Below the pieces are notes generated by a model. It was not told where the DNA came from. It made no database searches and saw nothing but the letters and a program-made list of their open reading frames with translations. 64,000 bases of DNA, taken from contig MGQW01000011.1 in assembly GCA_001798885.1 (NCBI GenBank), forward strand, positions 44,953 to 108,952. The letters are read 5' to 3'. This DNA is from Deltaproteobacteria bacterium RBG_16_64_85 (lineage in GTDB: Bacteria > Desulfobacterota > Deferrimicrobia > Deferrimicrobiales > Deferrimicrobiaceae). Below are positions 7,954 through 58,582 of this stretch, one piece after another. The position numbers were made by a program, and so were the translations under genes. Every line of letters begins with the position of its first letter. Position 1 is the first letter of the stretch.

Positions 7954-8040
7954 TGGTGCCGAAGGGGGGATTTGAACCCCCACGTGGTTGCCCACACTAG
8001 ACCCTGAATCTAGCGCGTCTGCCAGTTCCGCCACTTCGGC
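7954..8040 (-). tRNA. tRNA-Leu (anticodon CAG), type II with a long variable arm
   Basis: Reverse complement reads GCCGAAGUGGCGGAACUGGCAGACGCGCUAGAUUCAGGGUCUAG…GGGGGUUCAAAUCCCCCCUUCGGCACCA. It has a 7-bp acceptor stem, anticodon loop UUCAGGG, a T-loop, and a CCA end, and is very similar to E. coli tRNA-Leu(CAG). Confidence 0.9.
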
Positions 8041-47056: not shown

Positions 47057-47870
47057 CCGGATGCAATTCGTGGCGGGAAAAATCGTGCGGAACGAGGGGC
47101 ACGGGGAGATCTTCTATCGCCTGGAAGCGGCCGTCCCCGAGCCGGTCGAGTACGAGCCGGGCCAGTTCGCCATGGTCTCCGGCTGGCCGGGGAACGACCC
47201 GCTGCTCCCGCGGCCCCTGGCGATCTTTCGAGCGGGCGCGGCGCCGAAGGGCAAGGGGACGGTCGAGTTCGTCTACAAGGTCGTGGGGCGCGGCACCGCG
47301 CTGCTGTCGGGGATGCACCCGGGAGAGTCGCTGTCCCTCACCCTTCCGCTGGGCCGGGGGTTCGACCTCGCCAAGGACGGGCAGCTGTACTGGCTCGTTG
47401 GCGGCGGCGTCGGGTTCGCGACCGTCTTTCCCGCCGCCGCGGCGCTCGGAAGGCGGCGGGCGGAATATGAAATGTTTCTGGGAAGCCGCACCCGCGAACA
47501 GCTTCCCCCGAAGGAGTGGACGCCCGGCGGCTCATCCCCGGGGCGTGTCCACCTCTGCACCGAGGACGGGACCGCCGGTTATTTCGGGCAGGTCACCGAC
47601 ACCATCCGGGAGCGGATGGCGGCCCTTTCCGATGCCGATGCCACCCGCCTGACGATCCTCGCCTGCGGCCCCCGGGAGATGCTGAAGGAGATCGCCCTGG
47701 CGGCTTCGGTGCGGGGCGCGGAGATGCAGGCGGCGCTCGAAAATCACATGGCGTGCGGGTTCGGCGTCTGCTGGGGGTGCGTCGTTGCCCTGCGGGAGGG
47801 GGAGCAGATCGCCTATCGGCGGGTCTGCAAGGAAGGGCCGGTCTTCGATGCGCGGGAGGTCGTCTGGTGA
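47046..47870 (+). CDS. pyrK: Dihydroorotate dehydrogenase (class 1B) electron-transfer subunit PyrK
   Basis: FAD/NAD-binding domains and a C-terminal 2Fe-2S cluster motif 'CGFGVCWGC'. Confidence 0.85.
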   Translation: MSHSRMQFVAGKIVRNEGHGEIFYRLEAAVPEPVEYEPGQFAMVSGWPGNDPLLPRPLAIFRAGAAPKGKGTVEFVYKVVGRGTALLSGMHPGESLSLTLPLGRGFDLAKDGQLYWLVGGGVGFATVFPAAAALGRRRAEYEMFLGSRTREQLPPKEWTPGGSSPGRVHLCTEDGTAGYFGQVTDTIRERMAALSDADATRLTILACGPREMLKEIALAASVRGAEMQAALENHMACGFGVCWGCVVALREGEQIAYRRVCKEGPVFDAREVVW

Positions 47871-48781
47871 AACCGGACCTCTCGGTATCCCTGGGAAGGC
47901 TGCGCCTGAAGAACCCGGTGATGAGCGCGTCGGGGACGTTCGGGTACGGGCTCGAGTTCTCCCCCTTCTACGACATCTCGCGCCTCGGGGCCGTCGTGGT
48001 CAAGGGGTTGTCGCTTGCGCCCACGCCGGGGAACCCTCCGGGGCGGATCGTCGAGACGGCGTCGGGGATGCTCAACGCCATCGGCCTGCAGAACATCGGG
48101 GTCGAGCGGTTCATCGAGGAGGTCGCTCCGCGCCTTTCGGACGCGGGGGCCACGTTCGCCGCGAACATCTACGGACGGACGGTGGAGGAGTACGAATCGG
48201 TCGCCGTCCGGCTTTCGGAGCTGTCCTCTCTCGCCGCGATCGAAGTGAACGCCTCCTGTCCCAATGTAAAGGAGGGCGGGATGGCGTTCGGCGCGACGCC
48301 GGAGGGGATCTCGCATCTCACCGGCCGGGTGCGGAAGGCGACCGGGAAGTCCCTCTGGGTCAAGCTCAGCCCCAATGTCGCGGACATCGCCTCCGTGGCG
48401 GCTGCTGCGGAAGGCGCAGGGGCGGACGCCGTGTCGCTCATCAACACCATCGTCGGGATGGCGGTGGACCACCGGACGCGCAGGCCGAAGCTGTCCAACG
48501 TGACCGGGGGGCTGTCGGGGCCGGCGATCAAGCCGGTCGCCCTGCGGATGGTGTGGGAAGTGTGCCGGCGCGTGAAGATCCCGGTGATCGGGATCGGCGG
48601 GATCCAGACGGCGGCGGACGCGCTGGAGTTCCTTCTCGTGGGGGCCTCCGCGGTGCAGGTCGGGACGGCCAATTTCCGGAACCCGAGGGCGTGCGTGGAG
48701 ATCCTCGAAGGGGTCGAGACGTTCCTGCGGGAAGAGCGGCTCGCCGGGATCTCGGAGTACCGTGGGAAGCTGCACCTGTAA
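47867..48781 (+). CDS. pyrD: Dihydroorotate dehydrogenase catalytic subunit (class 1B)
   Basis: 'NPVMSASGTFGYG', 'EVNASCPN', 'GIGGI' motifs. GTGA overlap with pyrK. Confidence 0.9.
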   Translation: MKPDLSVSLGRLRLKNPVMSASGTFGYGLEFSPFYDISRLGAVVVKGLSLAPTPGNPPGRIVETASGMLNAIGLQNIGVERFIEEVAPRLSDAGATFAANIYGRTVEEYESVAVRLSELSSLAAIEVNASCPNVKEGGMAFGATPEGISHLTGRVRKATGKSLWVKLSPNVADIASVAAAAEGAGADAVSLINTIVGMAVDHRTRRPKLSNVTGGLSGPAIKPVALRMVWEVCRRVKIPVIGIGGIQTAADALEFLLVGASAVQVGTANFRNPRACVEILEGVETFLREERLAGISEYRGKLHL

Positions 48782-48796
48782 AGAAAAAGAATTGTC

Positions 48797-48826
48797 TTGT
48801 GGGCGATTTACGATTCCTCGTATAAT
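48797..48826 (+). promoter_or_regulatory. Candidate sigma70 promoter (TTGTGG-18 bp-TATAAT) for the rimP-nusA-infB operon
   Basis: Perfect -10 TATAAT at 48821-48826 with TTGTGG 18 bp upstream. Confidence 0.4.
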
Positions 48827-48852
48827 GGGGCCAGGTAGCGGGGAAACTCTGG

Positions 48853-48882
48853 AAAGTGGGCCGTCGCCCACTTTTTTTTTCG
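48853..48882 (+). terminator. Intrinsic terminator-like hairpin (7-bp GC stem, CGUC loop) followed by a 9-U tract and preceded by an A-tract; possible pyrD terminator and/or leader attenuator for rimP
   Basis: AGUGGGC-CGUC-GCCCACU followed by UUUUUUUUU at 48872-48880, 15 nt before the rimP ATG. Confidence 0.6.
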
Positions 48883-48895
48883 ATGTGACAAACCC

Positions 48896-49378
48896 ATGAA
48901 AGCGGACATCGAAAAGATCGAAACCCTGGTCGCCCAGGTGGCGCGGGAAGAGATGGTGGAGGTCTTCGACCTCGCTGTTGCGAGGGAAGGCCCTCGGACA
49001 GTGATCCGCGTCTTCCTGGACCGCGAGGGAGGCATCCGCCTCGGAGAGTGCGAGTCGTTCAGCCGGAAGATGAGCGCGGTGCTCGATGTCAGCGACCCGA
49101 TGCCGGGCCCTTACGTCCTGGAGGTTTCTTCGCCGGGGCTCAACCGGAGGCTTACGAAGCCGGCGCATTTTGCGGCGGTGGCGGGAAGGCGGATCCGGGT
49201 GGCGCTCTCCGAGCCGGTAGAAGGGAGTCGGAACTACCGGGGAACCCTGTTCCGGGCCGACGGGGAGGGCATCGACCTCGAGCGGGACGGCAAGATCTTC
49301 CGGTTCCCCTACCGCGCGGTGCGCAAGGCGAACCTGGAGGTTGACCAGGAAGAACTCTTCGGAAAGGGAAAGAGATAG
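48896..49378 (+). CDS. rimP: Ribosome maturation factor RimP
   Basis: 'VLDVSDPMPGPYVLEVSSPGLNRRL' conserved RimP core. 160 aa. Confidence 0.9.
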   Translation: MKADIEKIETLVAQVAREEMVEVFDLAVAREGPRTVIRVFLDREGGIRLGECESFSRKMSAVLDVSDPMPGPYVLEVSSPGLNRRLTKPAHFAAVAGRRIRVALSEPVEGSRNYRGTLFRADGEGIDLERDGKIFRFPYRAVRKANLEVDQEELFGKGKR

Positions 49379-49380
49379 CA

Positions 49381-50634
49381 ATGATTCTGGACATCGGGCA
49401 GATCATCACGCAGCTGGGCAAGGAGAAGGGGATCGACCGGGTCGTGATCGTCGAAGCGATCAAGGAGGCCCTGGAGATCGCCGCCAGGAAGAAGTACGGG
49501 ATGAACAAGCGGATCGAGGCTACCTACGACAGCGAAACCGGCGAATTCGAGATCCTGGAGTTCCGCACCGTCGTGGAGGAGGTCAAGGACCCCGAGGCCG
49601 AGATCTCGCTCGAAGCCGCCCGCGAGTACGACCCCGAAGCGGTCTACAACGACAACATCGGGTTCCGGATGAGCACCCGCGACCTGGGCCGCATCGCCGC
49701 GCAGACGGCCCGCCAGATCATCATGCAGAAGGTGAAGGACGCCGAGCGGGAAGTGATCTATAACGAGTTCATCGGCCGGAAGGGGGAGATCATCAACGGG
49801 ATCGTGCAGCGCTACGAGCGCGACTGCCTGGTCGTCGACCTGGGCAAGACGGAGGCCGTCATGCCGATGTCGGAGCAGATCCCCCGCGAGCGGTATCGCC
49901 AGGGAGACCGGATTCGGGCCTATATCAAGGACGTCAGCAAGACCCCGCGGGGGCCGGAGATCCTGCTTGCGCGCTCCGACCCGCGGATGATCCTCAAGCT
50001 GTTCGAACAGGAGGTCCCCGAGGTCTACGAGGGGGTCGTCTCCATCCTGAGCGTCGCGAGGGAGCCCGGTTTCCGGACGAAGATCGCCGTCCGCTCGAAG
50101 GACCGCGACGTGGACCCGGTGGGGGCATGCGTGGGGATGAAGGGATCCCGGGTGCAGAGCGTCGTCCAGGAGCTGCGCGGCGAGCGAATCGACATCATCG
50201 CGTGGGACGAAGATCCCGCGAAGTTCGTGTGCAACGCCCTCCAGCCGGCGGAGATCATCCGGGTGCTGGTCAACGAGTCCGAGAAGAGCATGGAGGTCGT
50301 CGTACCCGAGGAGCAGCTCCTCCTGGCGATCGGGAAAAAGGGGCAGAACGTCAAGCTGGCTTCGAAGCTCGTGGGGTGGCACATCGATGTCCGAGCGGAA
50401 GGGCAGGTCGAGGACGCCCTGAAGCGCGCGGAGGGGCTCTTCGCCCCCAAGAAGGCGGACCCGTCGGCGAAGGCCGAGGTTCCCCCGGGCGACGTGCCCG
50501 CTGCGCAGGAGCCCGAACCTTCGGTGGAGCCGCATCCGCAACCCTCCGTTGCGCCGCAGGGCCTGGAAGGCGGTGAGACTCCGCCCGCGGAAGAACCCTC
50601 CCCGGGGGAAGGGGACAGTGAAGCCAAACAGTGA
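49381..50634 (+). CDS. nusA: Transcription termination/antitermination factor NusA
   Basis: N-terminal domain, S1 and KH1-KH2 'GACVGMKGSRVQSVVQEL', and an acidic Pro-rich C-terminal tail. Confidence 0.95.
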   Translation: MILDIGQIITQLGKEKGIDRVVIVEAIKEALEIAARKKYGMNKRIEATYDSETGEFEILEFRTVVEEVKDPEAEISLEAAREYDPEAVYNDNIGFRMSTRDLGRIAAQTARQIIMQKVKDAEREVIYNEFIGRKGEIINGIVQRYERDCLVVDLGKTEAVMPMSEQIPRERYRQGDRIRAYIKDVSKTPRGPEILLARSDPRMILKLFEQEVPEVYEGVVSILSVAREPGFRTKIAVRSKDRDVDPVGACVGMKGSRVQSVVQELRGERIDIIAWDEDPAKFVCNALQPAEIIRVLVNESEKSMEVVVPEEQLLLAIGKKGQNVKLASKLVGWHIDVRAEGQVEDALKRAEGLFAPKKADPSAKAEVPPGDVPAAQEPEPSVEPHPQPSVAPQGLEGGETPPAEEPSPGEGDSEAKQ

Positions 50635-50914
50635 CCGCCGCCTCCCGGAGAGGACGTGCGTTCAGTGCGGAAGCACAGGGAGGAAGGAATCGTTTTTCCG
50701 GATCGCGGGACGGCCCGAATCGGGCTGGGAGCCGGATCCGGGAGGGAGGAAGCCGGGCCGCGGGATCTACCTTTGCCGGGCCGCGGAGTGCGTGGAAGGA
50801 TTCGCGAGGCGGATCCGGACCCCGAAGGGAGCGGCGCGGTGGAAGATGGGGGTCAACGGATCGGTGCTCGCGGACAAGGTTTCCGCCTGGTGGGCCGCTG
50901 AAGAGCGAAAGTAG
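50618..50914 (+). CDS. ylxR: YlxR/DUF448 family RNA-binding protein of the nusA-infB operon
   Basis: 'RTCVQCG…ESFFRI…GRGIYLC' is the YlxR signature. GTG start overlapping the nusA end. Confidence 0.7.
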   Translation: MKPNSDRRLPERTCVQCGSTGRKESFFRIAGRPESGWEPDPGGRKPGRGIYLCRAAECVEGFARRIRTPKGAARWKMGVNGSVLADKVSAWWAAEERK

Positions 50915-50923
50915 GGAGGGTGG

Positions 50924-53428
50924 ATGGAGAAGGTTCGCATTCGGGAGCTGGCCAAGGAACTCAGGATGGAGACGAGCAAGGAGATCCTCGCGTTCCTTGA
51001 GCGGATCGGGCAAAAGGGCAAGTCGGCATCGAGCAGCATCGAGGGAGACGTGATCGAGCGGGTGAAGAATCACTTCCGGAGGACCGCGCCGCCGCCTCCC
51101 CCGAAGCAGACCCTCGTGGTCACGCGCGCCGACGGGACCCTCGAGCGCCGCTCGAGCAGGGTGGTCCTGCGGCGCGGCGCACCGGTGGTCGAGAAGCCCC
51201 CCGCCCCCGAAGAGCCTTCCGCACCGGCACCTCCCGCAGGCGAAGCGGCCGCCGGGGCTCCTTCCGTCGCCGCGGCGCCCGCCCCCGTGGAGTCGGTTCC
51301 GGACGTCGCCAAGGCGCCGGAGGCGGTCCCGGCCGCGGAAACGCCCGGGGCGGAAGCGGAAAGCCGGCAACCGGCGGTAGCTGTTGTCCGGGTGGTGGAA
51401 AAGACGCCCGCCGAGAAGGCCGCCGAGGAGCGGAAAGAGAAGGAAAAGAAGTGGAAGAAAGCCAAGCCCCACGAGAAAAAGGTCCAGAAGGGAGTCCTGA
51501 AGAGAACCATCATCCAGGAAATCGTCGAGGAGCCCGAAGCCCCGAAGGCGCCGGAGAAACCGGCGGCCGAGGCCGAGCCGGTAGTGGTGCGCCAATTCCA
51601 GCCGGTCCGGGCGCTCAAGAAGAGGGGAAAGCCCGTCAAGGAAAAGAAGGCTCCCTCCACCCTTCCGCCGAAGGCCAGCAAGCGCGTGTTCAAGATCGAG
51701 GAGGTCATCACCGTCGGGGATCTCGCGCACCGGATGGGGATCAAGGCCGCCGACGTGATCAAGAAGCTGATCGAGATGGGGATGCCGACCACGGTCAATC
51801 AACTCCTCGACGCCGACACCGCCCGGATCCTGGCCCAGGAGTACGGGTACGAGGTGGAGAACGTCGCGCCCGAGGTGGAGAGCCTCATCGACCAGGAGGA
51901 GGACCGGGAGGAGGACCTCGTTTTGCGTCCGCCCGTCGTGACCATCATGGGGCACGTGGACCACGGGAAGACCACCCTGCTGGACGCCATCCGGCAGAGC
52001 AACGTCACCGACCACGAGGCGGGAGGGATCACCCAGCACATCGGCGCATACGAGGTCGAGCACGGCGAGCGGAAGCTCGTCCTGCTGGACACGCCGGGCC
52101 ACGAAGCCTTCACCTCCATGCGGGCCCGCGGCGCGTCGGTCACTGATATCGTGGTGCTGGTCGTCGCCGCCGACGACGGCGTGATGCCGCAGACGATCGA
52201 GGCGATCGACCACGCCAAGGCGGCGGGCGTGCCCATCGTGGTGGCGGTCAACAAGGTCGACAAGTCCGGGGCGCAACCCGACCGCATCCGGCAGCAGCTC
52301 TCCGAGCACGGGCTCCTCCCGGAGGAATGGGGCGGCCAGACGCTGTACGCCAACGTCTCCGCGAAGAGAAAGACGGGGATCGAAGCCCTGCTCGAGCTCG
52401 TCCTGCTCCAGGCCGACCTCCTGGAGCTGAAGTCCAACCCCAGGAAGATGGCGCGGGGGACGGTCATCGAATCCCGCCTGGAGAAGGGACGGGGTCCGGT
52501 GGCGACGGTTCTTGTCCGGGAAGGGACTTTGCGGGTCGGCGACCCGATCGTCACGGGGATCCACTACGGAAGGGTCCGGGCGCTGGCCAACCACAAGGGA
52601 AAGCGACTCGTGGAGTCTCCACCCGGGACCCCCGCGGAGATCCAGGGGCTTGACGGGCTCCCCGCCGCCGGCCAGAAGTTCGCGGTCCTCAAGGACGAGC
52701 GGACGGCGCGCCAGATCGCACTGCACCGACAGGAAAAGGACCGGGAGAAGACGGTCGCGCGGCCCCGGTTCAGCCTGGAGGATCTCCACCGGCACATCGA
52801 GGTCGGGGACCTGAGGGAGCTGAACATCGTCATCAAGGCGGACGTCCAGGGGTCGATGGAGGCGCTGCAGTTCTCCCTGGGGAAGCTCTCCGGAGAGAAG
52901 GTCAAGGTGAAGGTCATCCATGCCGGGGTCGGCGGGATCTCGGAGACCGACGTGATGCTGGCTTCGGCTTCCACAGCCGTCGTCATCGGCTTCAGCGTGC
53001 GGCCCGAGCCCAAGGCGGCGGAGCTGGCCGAGCGGGAGAGCGTCGATGTCCGGCTCTATTCCGTGATCTACGACGTCGTCGACGACATCCGGAAGGCGAT
53101 GGAAGGGCTGCTCGCGCCGACGTTCCGGGAAGCCTCCCAGGGGCGCGCCGAGGTCCGCAACACGTTCCACATCTCCAAGATCGGGACCATCGCCGGCTGC
53201 TACGTCCTGTCGGGAAAGATCACCCGGAACTCGAACCTCCGCCTGCTGCGCGACAGCGTAGTCGTGTACGAGGGAAAGCTCTCGTCCCTGAAGCGGTTCA
53301 AGGAGGATGTCCGCGAGGTGTCGGAAGGGTACGAGTGCGGGATCGGTATCGAGAACTTCAACGACATTCAGGTAGGCGACCAGATCGAGGCGTACGTGAT
53401 GGAGAAGGTCGCCGGGACGCTCGCGTAG
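50924..53428 (+). CDS. infB: Translation initiation factor IF-2
   Basis: G-domain '[12 protein letters not shown]', 'DTPGHEAF', 'NKVD', and Pro/Ala/Lys-rich N-terminal region. 834 aa. Confidence 0.95.
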
Positions 53429-53432
53429 CGCC

Positions 53433-53735
53433 ATGCTGGTGGCGGTGCTGTTGGCAGAGCTTCTCTTTCCCGACGCCGCTTCCCTCAAAGACAAACGCCG
53501 GAGGCTTTCCGGGCTGACCGGGAAGATCCGTTCCGGGTACCCGGTGTCCGTCGCCGAGGTCGGCTTCCAGGACCTGTGGCAGCGGGGCCGGATCGGCATC
53601 GCGCTGGTGTCGACCGACGCGCGACTGGCGCGGTCGATGCTGGACCGGATCAGCGATTTGGTGGGGCGGGACGGGGAGGTGGAGCTCCTCGACCGCCGGA
53701 TCGAGTTCCTCCGGGTCGATGAGGAGGAGACATGA
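53433..53735 (+). CDS. DUF503 (YlxP-like) protein
   Basis: 100-aa protein in the conserved position between infB and rbfA, with conserved 'SLKDKRR' segment. Confidence 0.7.
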   Translation: MLVAVLLAELLFPDAASLKDKRRRLSGLTGKIRSGYPVSVAEVGFQDLWQRGRIGIALVSTDARLARSMLDRISDLVGRDGEVELLDRRIEFLRVDEEET

Positions 53736-54097
53736 AAGGCCGAGGCGACCGCCCCGCCCGCGTGGCGGAACGGATCCGGGAGGAGGTTTCCCTCATCCTC
53801 CAGAACAGGGTGAAGGATCCCGGCATGGGGGTGGTGACGATCACGGACGTGACGATCACCCCCGATCTCAAGACCGCGCGCGTCCATTATTCCGTCCTGG
53901 GCGGGGACGAGGAGAAGATCGCCGTCCGGGACGCGCTGCGGCGCTCCAAGGGGTTCATCCGGAAGGAGCTCGGACGGACCCTCCAGCTGCGGTACTCCCC
54001 CGAGGTGGCGTTCCTGTTCGACAATACCTATGAAAAGGGTGCCCGGATGGACCGGCTCCTGAGGGAGATCCGGTCGGAGGGCGACGGTGAAAAATAA
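53732..54097 (+). CDS. rbfA: Ribosome-binding factor A
   Basis: 'RVAERIREEVSLIL…VTITDVTITPDLKTARVHYSV' is a classic RbfA sequence. Confidence 0.9.
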   Translation: MKGRGDRPARVAERIREEVSLILQNRVKDPGMGVVTITDVTITPDLKTARVHYSVLGGDEEKIAVRDALRRSKGFIRKELGRTLQLRYSPEVAFLFDNTYEKGARMDRLLREIRSEGDGEK

Positions 54098-55049
54098 CAT
54101 CGAGGCGATCTGCCGCGTCTTCCGGGAGAAGGATCGGTTCCTGATCGCCTCCCACGAAAACCCCGAGGGGGACGCCATCGGCTCCCAGCTGGCGCTGGCG
54201 CTTGCGCTGCGGAAGATGGGGAAGACCGCGACCGTCCTGAACGCCGATCCCGTTCCCGGGAACCTGGCGTTCCTACCGGGGGCCGACAGCGTGGTCTACG
54301 AGGAGAACGGCTCCCGCTACGAGGTGGCCGTCGTGGTGGATTGCGGCTCCTCCGAAAGGACCGGGCGCGTGCAGGCGGAGCTTTGCAAGCCCCCCGTCCT
54401 GGTGAACATCGACCATCACCGGACCAACGGCGGCTGCGGCAATTATTGCCTTGTCGACCCGGAGGCGGCCGCGACGGGGATCCTCATCTACCGGATTCTG
54501 GCGGCCATGAACGTGGAGATCGATTGCGACGTCGCCGTCAACATCTACGTTGCCATCCTGACGGACACCGGCTCCTTCCACTACGCCAACACCTCGCCGG
54601 AGGCCTTCCAAATCGCGGGGGAGATGATCCGGCGGGGGGTCGACCCCTGGGCGGTGGCGGAAAAGGTCTACGAGACCCAGAGCGCCGACCGGCTGCGCCT
54701 GCTGGGGAGGGTGCTCAGCTCCCTGGAGATCGCGGCCGGGGGGAAGGTCGCGGCCGTCACGACAACGAAGAAGGACCTCGCCGACTTCTCCGCCAGGAAG
54801 GATTTCCTCGAGGGGTTCATCAACTATCCCCGCTCGGTGATCGGGGTCGAGGTGGCGGTGGCGTTCCGGGAGGAGGACGCCGGGGAGATCCGGGTGAGCC
54901 TCCGGTCCAAGGGGCGCGTGGACGTTTCCGCGATCTCCCAGGCGTTCGGGGGAGGGGGGCACCGCAATGCCGCGGGATGCAGCCTGCGCGGCCCCCTCGA
55001 TGAGGTGAAGCGCAAGGTCTACGGGGCGTTGGAGGCGGCGCTCCGGTGA
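54087..55049 (+). CDS. nrnA: DHH-family phosphoesterase NrnA (oligoribonuclease / pAp phosphatase)
   Basis: DHH motifs 'ASHENPEGDAIGS', 'VVDCG', 'NIDHH' and a DHHA1 domain 'GGGGHRNAAG'. Confidence 0.8.
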   Translation: MKNNIEAICRVFREKDRFLIASHENPEGDAIGSQLALALALRKMGKTATVLNADPVPGNLAFLPGADSVVYEENGSRYEVAVVVDCGSSERTGRVQAELCKPPVLVNIDHHRTNGGCGNYCLVDPEAAATGILIYRILAAMNVEIDCDVAVNIYVAILTDTGSFHYANTSPEAFQIAGEMIRRGVDPWAVAEKVYETQSADRLRLLGRVLSSLEIAAGGKVAAVTTTKKDLADFSARKDFLEGFINYPRSVIGVEVAVAFREEDAGEIRVSLRSKGRVDVSAISQAFGGGGHRNAAGCSLRGPLDEVKRKVYGALEAALR

Positions 55050-55936
55050 CGGACGGCGTCATCGTCCTGGACAAGCCCGGCGGGATCACCTCCTTCCGCG
55101 CCGTCGAGGAGGTGGGGAGAGTCCTCCGGACGAAGAAGTGCGGGCACGCCGGCACCCTCGACCCGATGGCGACCGGAGTCCTGCTGGTGTGCGCCGGCAG
55201 GGCCACGAAGATCGCCGGATACCTCGCCGCGCAGGAAAAGGAATACGAGGCCCGTTTCCGGTTCGGGGCCGCCACCGACACGGGGGACGTCACCGGCAAG
55301 GTGATCGAAAGCCGGCCGGCCGCGTTTGCGCCTTCGGATGCCGTTGCCGTCGCCGTTTCCGGGCTTGTCGGCACCCGGGAGCAGGTCCCTCCGGCCTTCT
55401 CGGCCGTCAAGGTGGCCGGGACCCGGGCGTACGTGATGGCCCGGCAGGGGAAACCCCTGGAGCTTTCCCCGCGCACGGTGACCGTCGCCGAGGCGCGTCT
55501 TCTTTCATGGTCGGAGGAAGGGTTCGCCGTTTTCTTGCGGTGCTCGAAGGGGTTTTACGTCCGCGCGCTACCGCGGGAGCTGGGCCGGCTGCTGGGCGTC
55601 CCGATGGCCGTTTCGTCGCTGCGCCGGCTGCGGTCCGGCACCTTTCGCGTCGAGGATTCGGTAACGCTCGCGGACCTCGTCGAGGAGGGGAAGCGCGGCG
55701 CGGCGGCGTCCCGGCTGGTCCCGATCGAGAAGGCCCTCGCCGGGTTCCCGCAGTGGGAGATCCCGAAGGAGGCCGTCGTAGCGGTCCGTCACGGCGGCTC
55801 GCCCGCGCCCTGGCTTGCCGGGCGCGATCCGGGGCCCTCGCAAGGCGTGGTCCTGCTGACTCACGGGAAGGAGGGGCCCGTCGCCCTCGTCGAGCGGATC
55901 GGGGAGGGCCGGTGGAGGATCGTGCGGGGCATATGA
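55046..55936 (+). CDS. truB: tRNA pseudouridine(55) synthase TruB
   Basis: 'GVIVLDKPGGITSF', catalytic Asp 'HAGTLDPMATGVL', and a PUA-like C-terminus. Confidence 0.9.
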   Translation: MTDGVIVLDKPGGITSFRAVEEVGRVLRTKKCGHAGTLDPMATGVLLVCAGRATKIAGYLAAQEKEYEARFRFGAATDTGDVTGKVIESRPAAFAPSDAVAVAVSGLVGTREQVPPAFSAVKVAGTRAYVMARQGKPLELSPRTVTVAEARLLSWSEEGFAVFLRCSKGFYVRALPRELGRLLGVPMAVSSLRRLRSGTFRVEDSVTLADLVEEGKRGAAASRLVPIEKALAGFPQWEIPKEAVVAVRHGGSPAPWLAGRDPGPSQGVVLLTHGKEGPVALVERIGEGRWRIVRGI

Positions 55937-56027
55937 ATTTACTTCCCTGCGGGGATATGTTATAAAATAAAAATCCGGCAAATCTGTATGATTTTCTGAT
56001 CCTTTGAAAGGGGAAGGGCGAAGCGAA

Positions 56028-56297
56028 ATGGGCTTGGAGACGGAGAAGAAGAAGGACTTGATCGGCAAGTTCCGGGTACACGAGTCGGACACCGGCTCGC
56101 CCGAGGTCCAGATCGCCCTCCTGACGGAGAGGATCAACGAGATCACGGATCACCTCAAAACGCACAACAAGGACTTCAACACCCGGAGGGGGCTGTTGAA
56201 GCTGGTCGGTCAGAGGCGCCGTCTCCTCGACTACCTGAAGTTGAAGGAATCGCTGCGGTACAAGGCGGTAGTAGAAGCGCTCGGCCTGCGCAAGTAA
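56028..56297 (+). CDS. rpsO: 30S ribosomal protein S15
   Basis: '[50 protein letters not shown]' is classic S15. ATG after a GAAAGGGGAAGG RBS. Confidence 0.92.
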
Positions 56298-56335
56298 TTC
56301 GGGAAACGAACGATATCCACATCATCGCTGCCCCC

Positions 56336-58582
56336 GTGGCGGCACAAGAAGGGAATACAAACAAATTGGGACACGTGTACGAAAAGGAAATATCGGGAAG
56401 AAAACTTTGCATGGAGACCGGCGTGTTGGCCAAGCAGGCGGGCGGCGCCGTGGTCGTTCGGTACGGGGACTCCTTGGTCCTCGTGACGGCGTGCGGCGAC
56501 GAGACGACTCCGCGGCAGGGGATCGATTTCCTCCCCCTCGTCGTCGACTACGTCGAGAAAACGTTCGCGGTCGGGAGGATCCCTGGCGGCTTCTTGAAGC
56601 GGGAGGGGAGGCTCTCGGAATTCGAGGTGCTGACGTCGAGGCTCATCGACCGGCCGATCCGGCCGCTGTTCCCGAAAGGGTTCTACAACGAGACCCAGGT
56701 GATCGCCACCGTCCTCTCCGCGGACAAGGAAAACGACACGAGCATCCTGGCGATGATCGGCGCTTCCGCCGCACTCACCCTCTCCGACCTCCCGTTCAGC
56801 GGGCCGATCGCCGGCGCTCGGGTAGGTCGGATCGACGGGAAGCTCGTCATCAATCCCCGGATCCCCGAGCTGGCCGGCAGCGACGTGAACATCTTCGTGG
56901 CCGGCAGCCGCGACGCCATCCTGATGGTGGAGGGAGAGGCCGGCGAGGTCCCGGAGGAGGAGGTGCTCGACGCGATCCTGTTCGCCCACGAGTCCCTCCA
57001 GCCGATCCTCGAGATGCAGGAACGGATGCGGGAGGAGATCGGCAAGCCCAAGCGCACCTTCGAGAAGAAAGAGCTCTCCGAGGAGGACCTGCGCAAGATA
57101 TCGGAGGTCGCGGAGAACGACTTGCGGGCCGCGTACGGCATCCAGGCCAAGCAGGACCGCCGGAAACGGATCGACGAGATCGCGGAGGCCGTCCGGAACG
57201 CCTTCTCCGAGGAGGAGCGCGTCGAGAAGGCCACCCTCATCGCGGAGACCTTCAAGAACCTGGAAAAGCGGATCGTCCGCGGAAAGATCCTCGCTACGGG
57301 CCAGAGGATCGACGGCCGGCGGCTCACGGACATCCGGCCCATCGAGAGCCGGGTGGGGGTGCTCCCCCGCACGCACGGCTCCGCGATCTTCACGCGGGGG
57401 GAGACCCAAGTGCTCGTCACCGCCACGCTCGGCACCACGCAGGACGAGCAGCGGATCGACTCCCTGCTGGGCGAGTCCTACAAGTCGTTCATGCTGCACT
57501 ATAACTTCCCCCCCTTCAGCGTGGGGGAGGTGAAGATGCTCCGCCAGCCCGGGCGCCGGGAAGTCGGCCACGGCGCGCTGGCCGAAAGGGCCGTCTCCAA
57601 GGTGGTCCCCGGGGAGCAGGAGTTCCCGTACACCATCCGTATCGTCTCCGAAGTCCTCGAGTCGAACGGCTCCTCCTCGATGGCCACGGTCTGCGGCGCC
57701 TCCCTCGCGATGATGGATGCGGGGATCCCCACGGCCGGCGCGGTCTCCGGCATCGCCATGGGACTCATCAAGGAAGGGGACAAGGTCGCCGTCCTCTCCG
57801 ACATCCTGGGCGACGAGGACCACTTGGGCGACATGGACTTCAAGGTGGCCGGGACCGCGAAAGGGGTCACCGCCATCCAGATGGACATCAAGATCGGGGG
57901 GGTTAGCCGGGACATCCTGCTGGCCGCCCTTCGGCAGGCCCGGGAAGGGCGCCTCCACATCCTCGACAAGATGAACGTCGCGCTCGACAAGCCCCGCGCC
58001 GAGCTGTCGCCATTTGCGCCGCGCATTTACGTCATGAACGTGAGGACCGACAAGATCCGGGAAATCATCGGCCCGGGAGGAAAGGTCATCCGCAGCATCC
58101 AGGAGCAAACCGGCGTCAAGATCGACGTCGATGACGACGGGACGGTCAAGATCGCGGCGGTCGACGCCGCTTCCGCCAGGGCGGCCATCTCCATCATCGA
58201 GGGGATCGTCCAGGAGGCCCAGGTGGGGAAGGTCTACGAGGGGAAGGTGCGCAAGATCATGGACTTCGGTGCCTTCGTGGAGCTGTTCCCCGGTACCGAC
58301 GGGCTCCTGCACGTCTCCCAGATCTCCACGAAGCGCGTCCGCTCCGTCTCCAACTGCTTCAAGGAGGGGGACAAGGTCACCGTAAGCGTCCTCGAGGTCG
58401 ACCGCGACGGGAGGATCCGCCTCTCTCACAAGGAGTTCGAGAAGGAGGGGGAATTCCCCGCCACGGCGTTCGTCGGGCCGGACGATCCGGAAGGCCGCAG
58501 CGAGCGGGAACCCCGCGGCGACCGCCCGCCGCGCGACAAGGACCGCGAGCACGGGGGCGGGAGCCGGAGAGGCAGGCGCTGA
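56336..58582 (+). CDS. pnp: Polyribonucleotide nucleotidyltransferase (PNPase)
   Basis: Two RNase PH domains, plus KH and S1 domains 'GKVRKIMDFGAFVEL'. The true start is probably TTG/GTG about 30-40 nt downstream of 56336. Basic C-terminal tail. Confidence 0.9.
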   Translation: MAAQEGNTNKLGHVYEKEISGRKLCMETGVLAKQAGGAVVVRYGDSLVLVTACGDETTPRQGIDFLPLVVDYVEKTFAVGRIPGGFLKREGRLSEFEVLTSRLIDRPIRPLFPKGFYNETQVIATVLSADKENDTSILAMIGASAALTLSDLPFSGPIAGARVGRIDGKLVINPRIPELAGSDVNIFVAGSRDAILMVEGEAGEVPEEEVLDAILFAHESLQPILEMQERMREEIGKPKRTFEKKELSEEDLRKISEVAENDLRAAYGIQAKQDRRKRIDEIAEAVRNAFSEEERVEKATLIAETFKNLEKRIVRGKILATGQRIDGRRLTDIRPIESRVGVLPRTHGSAIFTRGETQVLVTATLGTTQDEQRIDSLLGESYKSFMLHYNFPPFSVGEVKMLRQPGRREVGHGALAERAVSKVVPGEQEFPYTIRIVSEVLESNGSSSMATVCGASLAMMDAGIPTAGAVSGIAMGLIKEGDKVAVLSDILGDEDHLGDMDFKVAGTAKGVTAIQMDIKIGGVSRDILLAALRQAREGRLHILDKMNVALDKPRAELSPFAPRIYVMNVRTDKIREIIGPGGKVIRSIQEQTGVKIDVDDDGTVKIAAVDAASARAAISIIEGIVQEAQVGKVYEGKVRKIMDFGAFVELFPGTDGLLHVSQISTKRVRSVSNCFKEGDKVTVSVLEVDRDGRIRLSHKEFEKEGEFPATAFVGPDDPEGRSEREPRGDRPPRDKDREHGGGSRRGRR

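Follow-up and report, generated by a model that had tools for sequence, protein, structure and literature searches.

The 64,000-nt window analyzed here, a stretch of Deltaproteobacteria bacterium RBG_16_64_85 (contig MGQW01000011.1, positions 44,953 to 108,952), encodes the operon rimP-nusA-ylxR-infB-DUF503-rbfA-nrnA-truB on its forward strand. Immediately upstream of rimP are a promoter and a hairpin followed by a run of U residues. We consider it likely that this element is the genome's copy of the known rimP-leader, acting as a premature terminator that sets transcription into the operon. Positions given below are those of the window, and features are on the forward strand unless stated otherwise.

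The gene upstream of the operon is pyrD (class 1B; 47867-48781), which is itself preceded by pyrK. Its TAA stop codon (48779-48781) ends 72 nt before the hairpin, and 114 nt separate it from rimP (48896-49378), the first gene of the operon. Within this gap is a perfect consensus -10 hexamer, TATAAT (48821-48826), at an 18-nt spacing from a -35 hexamer, TTGTGG (48797-48802), that matches TTGACA at three of six positions. An A-rich block, AAGAA (48787-48791), is located just 5' of the -35 hexamer and may be an UP-like element. The first-pass annotation, made from the sequence by a model, had placed this promoter correctly, and its hexamers are both conserved and unique in the window. The pattern TTG-N21-TATAAT occurs once in the 64 kb and in none of 100 shuffled versions. 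The description of the promoter as near-consensus was too generous given this -35 hexamer, and a consensus promoter scan of positions 47500-56500 called no site, the one before rimP included. Directly 3' of the -10 hexamer the window has five extra bases (GGGCC-type, 48827-48831) that are absent from all 11 aligned relatives, and this insertion makes the discriminator region (TATAATGGGGCC) GC-rich.

The -10 position predicts a transcription start site at about 48833-48834, and the GC core of the hairpin is about 23 nt downstream. The intervening 5' leader (48833-48852) brings the hairpin to about 26 nt from the -10 hexamer. The hairpin itself (48853-48874) has a 5' arm AAAGUGGGC, a CGUC loop and a 3' arm GCCCACUUU. 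In its core GUGGGC (48856-48861) pairs with GCCCAC (48866-48871), and A-U pairs lengthen the stem to 10-11 bp. The stem leads into a U9 tract (T9 in the DNA; 48872-48880), the first three or four residues of which are able to pair with upstream A's, giving the form of an intrinsic terminator. The fold has a predicted energy of -15.5 kcal/mol (z = -4.2), and none of 200 shuffled sequences was as stable. All coordinates that had been proposed for a hairpin with a CGUC loop and nine U's after the predicted start were borne out. A scan of 3 kb for terminator-like patterns found one such site, where 2.2 are expected by chance, and no second site between pyrD and rimP. Because the pattern taken by itself is within chance expectation, the significance of the terminator comes from its conservation. 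More generally, given a -35 hexamer that the promoter scan passed over, the case for both promoter and hairpin rests on uniqueness and conservation.

A 15-nt spacer, CGAUGUGACAAACCC (= CGATGTGACAAACCC; 48881-48895), connects the U-run to the rimP ATG. As had been noted from the sequence, no Shine-Dalgarno sequence is present here: nothing resembling GGAGG precedes rimP, and infB, nrnA, truB and pyrD each have such a sequence. None of the aligned relatives has a Shine-Dalgarno sequence at this position either. Initiation at rimP would appear to be Shine-Dalgarno-independent, perhaps relying on an unstructured U-rich leader. Within the spacer, at 48883-48888, is a start-stop open reading frame (ORF; AUG-UGA, ATG TGA in the DNA), 8 nt 5' of the rimP ATG. 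The loci that retain it are the closest ones alone (L001, L081-L084), and L087-L091 lack it.

Conservation of the hairpin in the rimP leaders of related genomes, proposed earlier as a check, was evaluated at two depths. The RimP homologues assign the window to Candidatus Deferrimicrobiaceae, and the close-relative set comprised 13 Deferrimicrobiaceae-type loci, with RimP identities of 61-96%. Two close relatives were among the matches listed by a genome scan, and the others came from a metagenome scan. GTGGGC-loop-GCCCAC followed by T9 is present in all 13. In 12 relatives AAGAA, TTGT and TAnnAT are invariant and at fixed spacing, and the sequence between them varies. The 5' leader also varies among these relatives. 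In one locus (L085) the promoter is the same, yet an unrelated hairpin of about 55 nt (2252-2310) separates it from the leader hairpin; the leader of L086 is similar. Promoter and hairpin are two separately conserved modules.

The broader set consisted of 136 loci, of which 80 are among the matches listed in species-representative genomes of many phyla (RimP alignment scan) and 56 are from metagenomes. The exact stem, GTGGGC-N3-9-GCCCAC, is found upstream of rimP in 45 of these listed loci, which span Nitrospirota, Acidobacteriota, Thermodesulfobacteriota, Myxococcota (Myxococcales), Methylomirabilota, Binatia and several Gammaproteobacteria. Most of the remaining listed loci have close variants of the stem. 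One of these, AAGUGGG...CCCGCUU, occurs in Clostridia, Eggerthellaceae and a large group of metagenome contigs; another, AAUGGGCC...GGCCCAUU, occurs in many Gammaproteobacteria. A motif-blind control used a generic finder for a hairpin plus T-run, applied within 400 nt upstream of rimP and elsewhere in the same loci. The combination of a TGGG 5' arm and a CCCR 3' arm was found in hairpins upstream of rimP in 83 of 136 cases. Elsewhere it was found in 10 of 120, nine of which are the same leader displaced further upstream behind an inserted gene, leaving 1 of 111. Across many phyla, conservation extends over (A)AGUGGGC...GCCCRC, and it is asymmetric in that the 5' arm is the more conserved.

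We also built a covariance model (R1) from 34 non-redundant copies and searched both strands of 93 held-out sources (475 kb). Forty of its 42 matches are upstream of rimP on the rimP strand, and the remaining two echo such sites on the reverse strand. The site in the window has the top score (43.6 bits) and is the sole forward-strand match there, the other match being its own reverse-strand echo. In the alignment of matches 99% of cells are paired and five of eight pairs show compensatory changes; the alignment leans towards structure because it was fitted to the model. The G11-C35 pair is invariant, and GGG/CCC is hardly ever exchanged for other G-C pairs. The U in the 5' arm is always U and faces A in 26 sequences but G in 11. 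The stem is under sequence constraint beyond pairing, which suggests that its GGG/CCC core or 5' arm is read by a protein or by the polymerase.

Transfer RNA genes are a recurrent feature of the region upstream of this leader. In Thermodesulfobacteriota and Desulfovibrionaceae-type loci (L013, L014, L035, L036, L039, L042, L056, L080, L097, L100, L108-L111 and L136) a tRNA-Gly(CCC) gene is encoded on the same strand about 100-300 nt 5' of the hairpin. It takes the place of the tRNA-fMet gene (metY) of Gammaproteobacteria (L018, L020, L024, L025, L027, L033, L044, L063, L064 and L070). The layout of tRNA, terminator and rimP thus recurs with differing tRNAs. The window has no tRNA at this site; its only tRNA gene is at 7957-8040 on the other strand.

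The first-pass annotation did not recognize the element as a described family, although it fits the rimP-leader reported by Naville & Gautheret (2010; Genome Biol 11:R97, Fig. 2b; PMC2965389). In that study rimP ranked first among genes with predicted attenuators. The motif was described as the terminator itself: a stem with GGGc...gCCC, its 5' arm rich in G and its 3' arm rich in C, and then a stretch of U's. It is located 4-130 nt from the start codon, possibly includes the ribosome-binding site, lacks an antiterminator, and acts as a premature terminator before rimP-nusA-infB in most bacteria (PMC2965389). The authors argued for recognition by a protein, with NusA as the best candidate and RimP as an alternative (PMC2965389). 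The window agrees with this description in location, stem, U-stretch and distance to the start codon. The element is in the 5' untranslated region (UTR) of rimP in a rimP-nusA-infB operon (NCBIfam calls), and GUGGGC-CGUC-GCCCAC (48856-48871) is followed directly by U9. The distance from the U-run to the ATG, 15 nt, is within the published range, and the region of the ribosome-binding site overlaps or abuts the element. The signature is specific to rimP leaders, with a single site in the window. No antiterminator was found by folding or by eye, in a search that was not exhaustive; the minimum free energy and centroid folds both keep the terminator hairpin, and the only competing pairing seen by inspection is 3 bp, of AGCGGGG with CCCAC. 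No essential difference from the general form was seen. The conserved block is longer, here and in many non-gammaproteobacterial phyla, and its 5' arm has an invariant U; the leader in the window is very short, with the promoter directly adjacent. The element, its distribution, its stem signature and the idea of NusA feedback are thus already in the literature, and this copy is a typical one.

Three better characterized systems provide points of comparison. In Bacillus subtilis, nusA is reported to be autoregulated through intrinsic termination that NusA stimulates in the 5' leader (review PMC12288461, citing Mondal 2016). The gene set there (rimP (ylxS), nusA, ylxR, infB, DUF503 (ylxP), rbfA and truB) and the presence of a leader terminator are shared with the window. 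At about 180 nt, the leader in B. subtilis is longer than the one here (about 47 nt), and an effect of NusA here is suggested by analogy. In Escherichia coli the terminators t1 and t2 precede rimP, and operon transcripts rise when NusA termination is reduced in mutants (PMC6511841). The NusA feedback that the first-pass annotation named for the E. coli operon is therefore documented. The order of promoter, short non-coding RNA, terminator(s) and rimP is common to the two loci, and NusA represses the E. coli operon. The E. coli metY-rimP-nusA-infB locus differs from the window in carrying a tRNA-fMet gene, a pair of terminators, sites for RNase III and several promoters. The third system is rimP of Streptococcus agalactiae (gbs0413). 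There, short and long transcripts share one start site, with intrinsic termination 31 nt downstream, and NusA feedback on the operon was inferred from RNA-seq (PMC4448216). This short-leader arrangement is like the one predicted for the window. That organism is a Firmicute, and the evidence there is from RNA-seq, whereas for the window it is from sequence.

Based on these comparisons, RNA polymerase would start at the conserved promoter (-35 at 48797-48802, -10 at 48821-48826) and, after about 45 nt, would have transcribed AAAGUGGGC-CGUC-GCCCAC and then U9. A fraction of the complexes would terminate and free an RNA of about 47 nt, and the remainder would read into the operon. NusA on the elongating polymerase would raise termination at the hairpin, so that more NusA would lead to less nusA mRNA, a negative feedback by analogy with B. 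subtilis and E. coli. The reading of the site as a NusA-sensing transcription attenuator, already put forward in the first-pass annotation, is supported by the comparative data and by the literature. In this organism the start site, termination and its NusA dependence are predicted, and NusA is the presumed feedback sensor of the leader. With no other consensus promoter in 47500-56500, the essential genes nusA and infB are probably transcribed through this site, which is consistent with a terminator that can be tuned.

Several observations weigh against this interpretation. The hairpin is strong and the U9 tract is perfect, so NusA may have limited room to modulate it, and terminators that respond strongly to NusA reportedly tend to be weak. 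The weak -35 hexamer and the failure of the consensus scan to call the promoter count here as well. The factor that reads the stem may be other than NusA, with RimP (named in PMC2965389) and IF2 (which we add) as candidates. Finally, the Rfam rimP model, RF01770, has no match to the window at the gathering threshold (47 bits), nor at E ≤ 10 on stretches of 501 nt and 75 nt around the site. At E ≤ 10 the only Rfam matches there are spurious ones to terminator-type small RNAs (sRNAs) on the wrong strand. The positive controls, two enterobacterial-type loci, reached 63.3 bits (L064) and 61.8 bits (L070), and three Clostridium loci (L010, L015 and L073) gave no match at gathering or at E ≤ 1. The 3' hairpin of RF01770, cUGGGC-loop-GCCC followed by U7, is the same motif as in the window. 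However, the model is a 102-nt composite that includes an upstream inverse terminator, CCCCG...CGGGG, and usually is found behind tRNA-fMet, and the window has neither. The model misses this copy because it covers only the two-hairpin gammaproteobacterial form. The single-hairpin form is far more widespread and is without an Rfam model, and R1 recovers it specifically.

The distance between hairpin and rimP bears on whether the hairpin could instead act post-transcriptionally, either as a translational operator for RimP, IF2 or another operon product or as an mRNA-stabilizing 5' stem-loop. Here only 15-24 nt lie between the end of the hairpin and an AUG without a Shine-Dalgarno sequence, the published element can include the ribosome-binding site and RimP feedback is raised there as a possibility (PMC2965389), and a stem conserved in sequence fits recognition by a protein. 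However, the short distance from hairpin to start is not conserved. It ranges from about 13 to more than 300 nt, is about 150-190 nt in L085 and L086, where tandem repeats occupy the 5' UTR, and is increased by insertions of about 52 nt in L082 and L083; several loci have a whole gene in between. Because the distance extends from about 13 nt to an entire inserted gene, a translational operator is not the conserved function. The U-run is also always directly 3' of the stem, which is the signature of termination. We therefore regard a primarily post-transcriptional role as unlikely, and a secondary role of this kind may exist in this genome.

The inserted sequences are of several kinds. In L086 (2350-2493) a 51-nt tandem repeat, in 2.8 copies with 90% matches, is located between the leader terminator and rimP, and a similar repeated sequence is present at the same 5' UTR position in L085 (2380-2490). 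The insertions in L082 (381-440) and L083 (117-175) are between T9 and a conserved GATGTGACA(A/C)(A/G)CCC-ATG segment. In L097 (1633-1989) and L110 (1950-2294) the region between hairpin and rimP encodes a pyrimidine-dimer DNA glycosylase (Pfam Pyr_excise; E = 4e-26 for the ORF in L110), and the attenuator in such loci is therefore 460-1400 nt upstream of rimP. Similar inserted genes, sometimes with further ORFs, occur in L100, L108, L109, L111, L113, L120 and L136.

We give little credence to the possibility that the hairpin is merely the terminator of pyrK-pyrD, with an incidental TATAAT and with rimP-nusA-infB expressed from elsewhere. The proximity and shared strand of pyrD are suggestive, as are the presence of no other terminator-like site before rimP and the pyrD-rimP synteny in all 13 close relatives. 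This synteny is confined to the Deferrimicrobiaceae-type group, and pyrD is the upstream neighbor in only 12 of the 136 listed loci; therefore, the hairpin belongs to rimP, not to pyrD. The same stem is found before rimP in over 80 loci where the upstream neighbor is another gene or a tRNA. In addition, the hexamers of the promoter that separates pyrD from the hairpin are conserved, and no other consensus promoter occurs up to 56500. The suggestion in the first-pass annotation that the site serves as the pyrD terminator holds in part: the hairpin probably does stop pyrD transcripts, as a side function, and this is not the reason for its conservation.

If the unit were instead a stand-alone gene for a trans-acting sRNA of about 47 nt, it would likewise have its own promoter and terminator, as observed here. 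A short stable RNA was also seen at the equivalent S. agalactiae locus. The 5' 20-25 nt that would distinguish such an RNA vary even among close relatives, with only AGCGGGG kept at RimP identities of at least 87%, and in L085 and L086 an unrelated hairpin takes the place of this segment or enlarges it. Across phyla only the terminator stem is conserved, and the element always stays with rimP. A separate sRNA, which had been suggested at about 45 nt, is thus very unlikely, because conservation of the RNA's 5' part does not extend past close relatives. The idea that the perfect inverted repeat GTGGGC...GCCCAC just 3' of the promoter is an operator in the DNA, bound by a dimeric transcription factor, can be set aside as highly improbable, given that the half-site spacing varies from 3 to 9 nt, that GTGGG...CCCGC in many loci keeps a G-U pair in the RNA and breaks the DNA palindrome (U-A 26, U-G 11), and that the T-run is always on one strand only.

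The question for the family as a whole is why the sequence of the stem, beyond its pairing, is near-invariant from Firmicutes to Proteobacteria, and what reads it; this copy is no more tractable than others in that respect. One speculative answer, which we consider a long shot, is that the invariant 5' arm, (A)AGUGGGC, is a recognition element mimicking boxC of rRNA leaders. In Enterobacteriaceae boxC is UCUGUGUGGG, a nearly invariant sequence with an elusive role that shows interchangeable Watson-Crick and wobble pairing with its partner (PMC10250234). The likeness of the 5' arm to boxC is that of a 5-6-mer only. The stem is compatible with such mimicry in that its 5'-arm U is invariant opposite either A or G, much like the pairing of boxC, and its GGG/CCC is almost never replaced. 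Were the mimicry real, expression of the operon that encodes NusA, RimP, RbfA and IF2 would be matched to rRNA transcription. The rRNA and rimP leaders would then share a component that binds boxC, either NusA or a different rrn antitermination factor. The arrangement would then parallel autoregulation of ribosomal proteins by rRNA mimicry.

The genes downstream of the leader are identified as follows. RimP is 160 aa long (NCBIfam RimP, E = 7e-35) and has an N-terminus, MKADIEK, that is common to its homologues. The presumed sensor of the attenuator, NusA (417 aa; 49381-50634), matches TIGR01953 (E = 1e-124). The gap between nusA and infB is filled by a ylxR-like gene (DUF448; 50618-50914; Pfam YlxR, E = 1.6e-13). 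Its probable start is the GTG at 50618, giving a 17-nt overlap with the end of nusA. Next is infB (50924-53428), encoding IF-2 (TIGR00487, E = 2e-251). The distal genes of the operon are a DUF503 gene (53433-53735), rbfA (53732-54097), nrnA (54087-55049) and truB (55046-55936). The main use of the result is for annotation, as it marks the promoter of rimP-nusA-ylxR-infB and the attenuator in its leader in the uncultured phylum Candidatus Deferrimicrobiota.

There are also two lessons for annotation, the first being that the Rfam rimP model misses the common single-hairpin form and the second that gene callers sometimes translate the leader as a false RimP N-terminus. Five RimP homologues (P0017, P0024, P0075, P0111 and P0118) have such false N-termini, for example KWAVAHFFFR, which is the translated hairpin plus T-run. 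These are an annotation artefact caused by the start without a Shine-Dalgarno sequence. N-terminal extensions of the form ...WAVAHFFF... in database RimP calls were the first hint that the leader was conserved.

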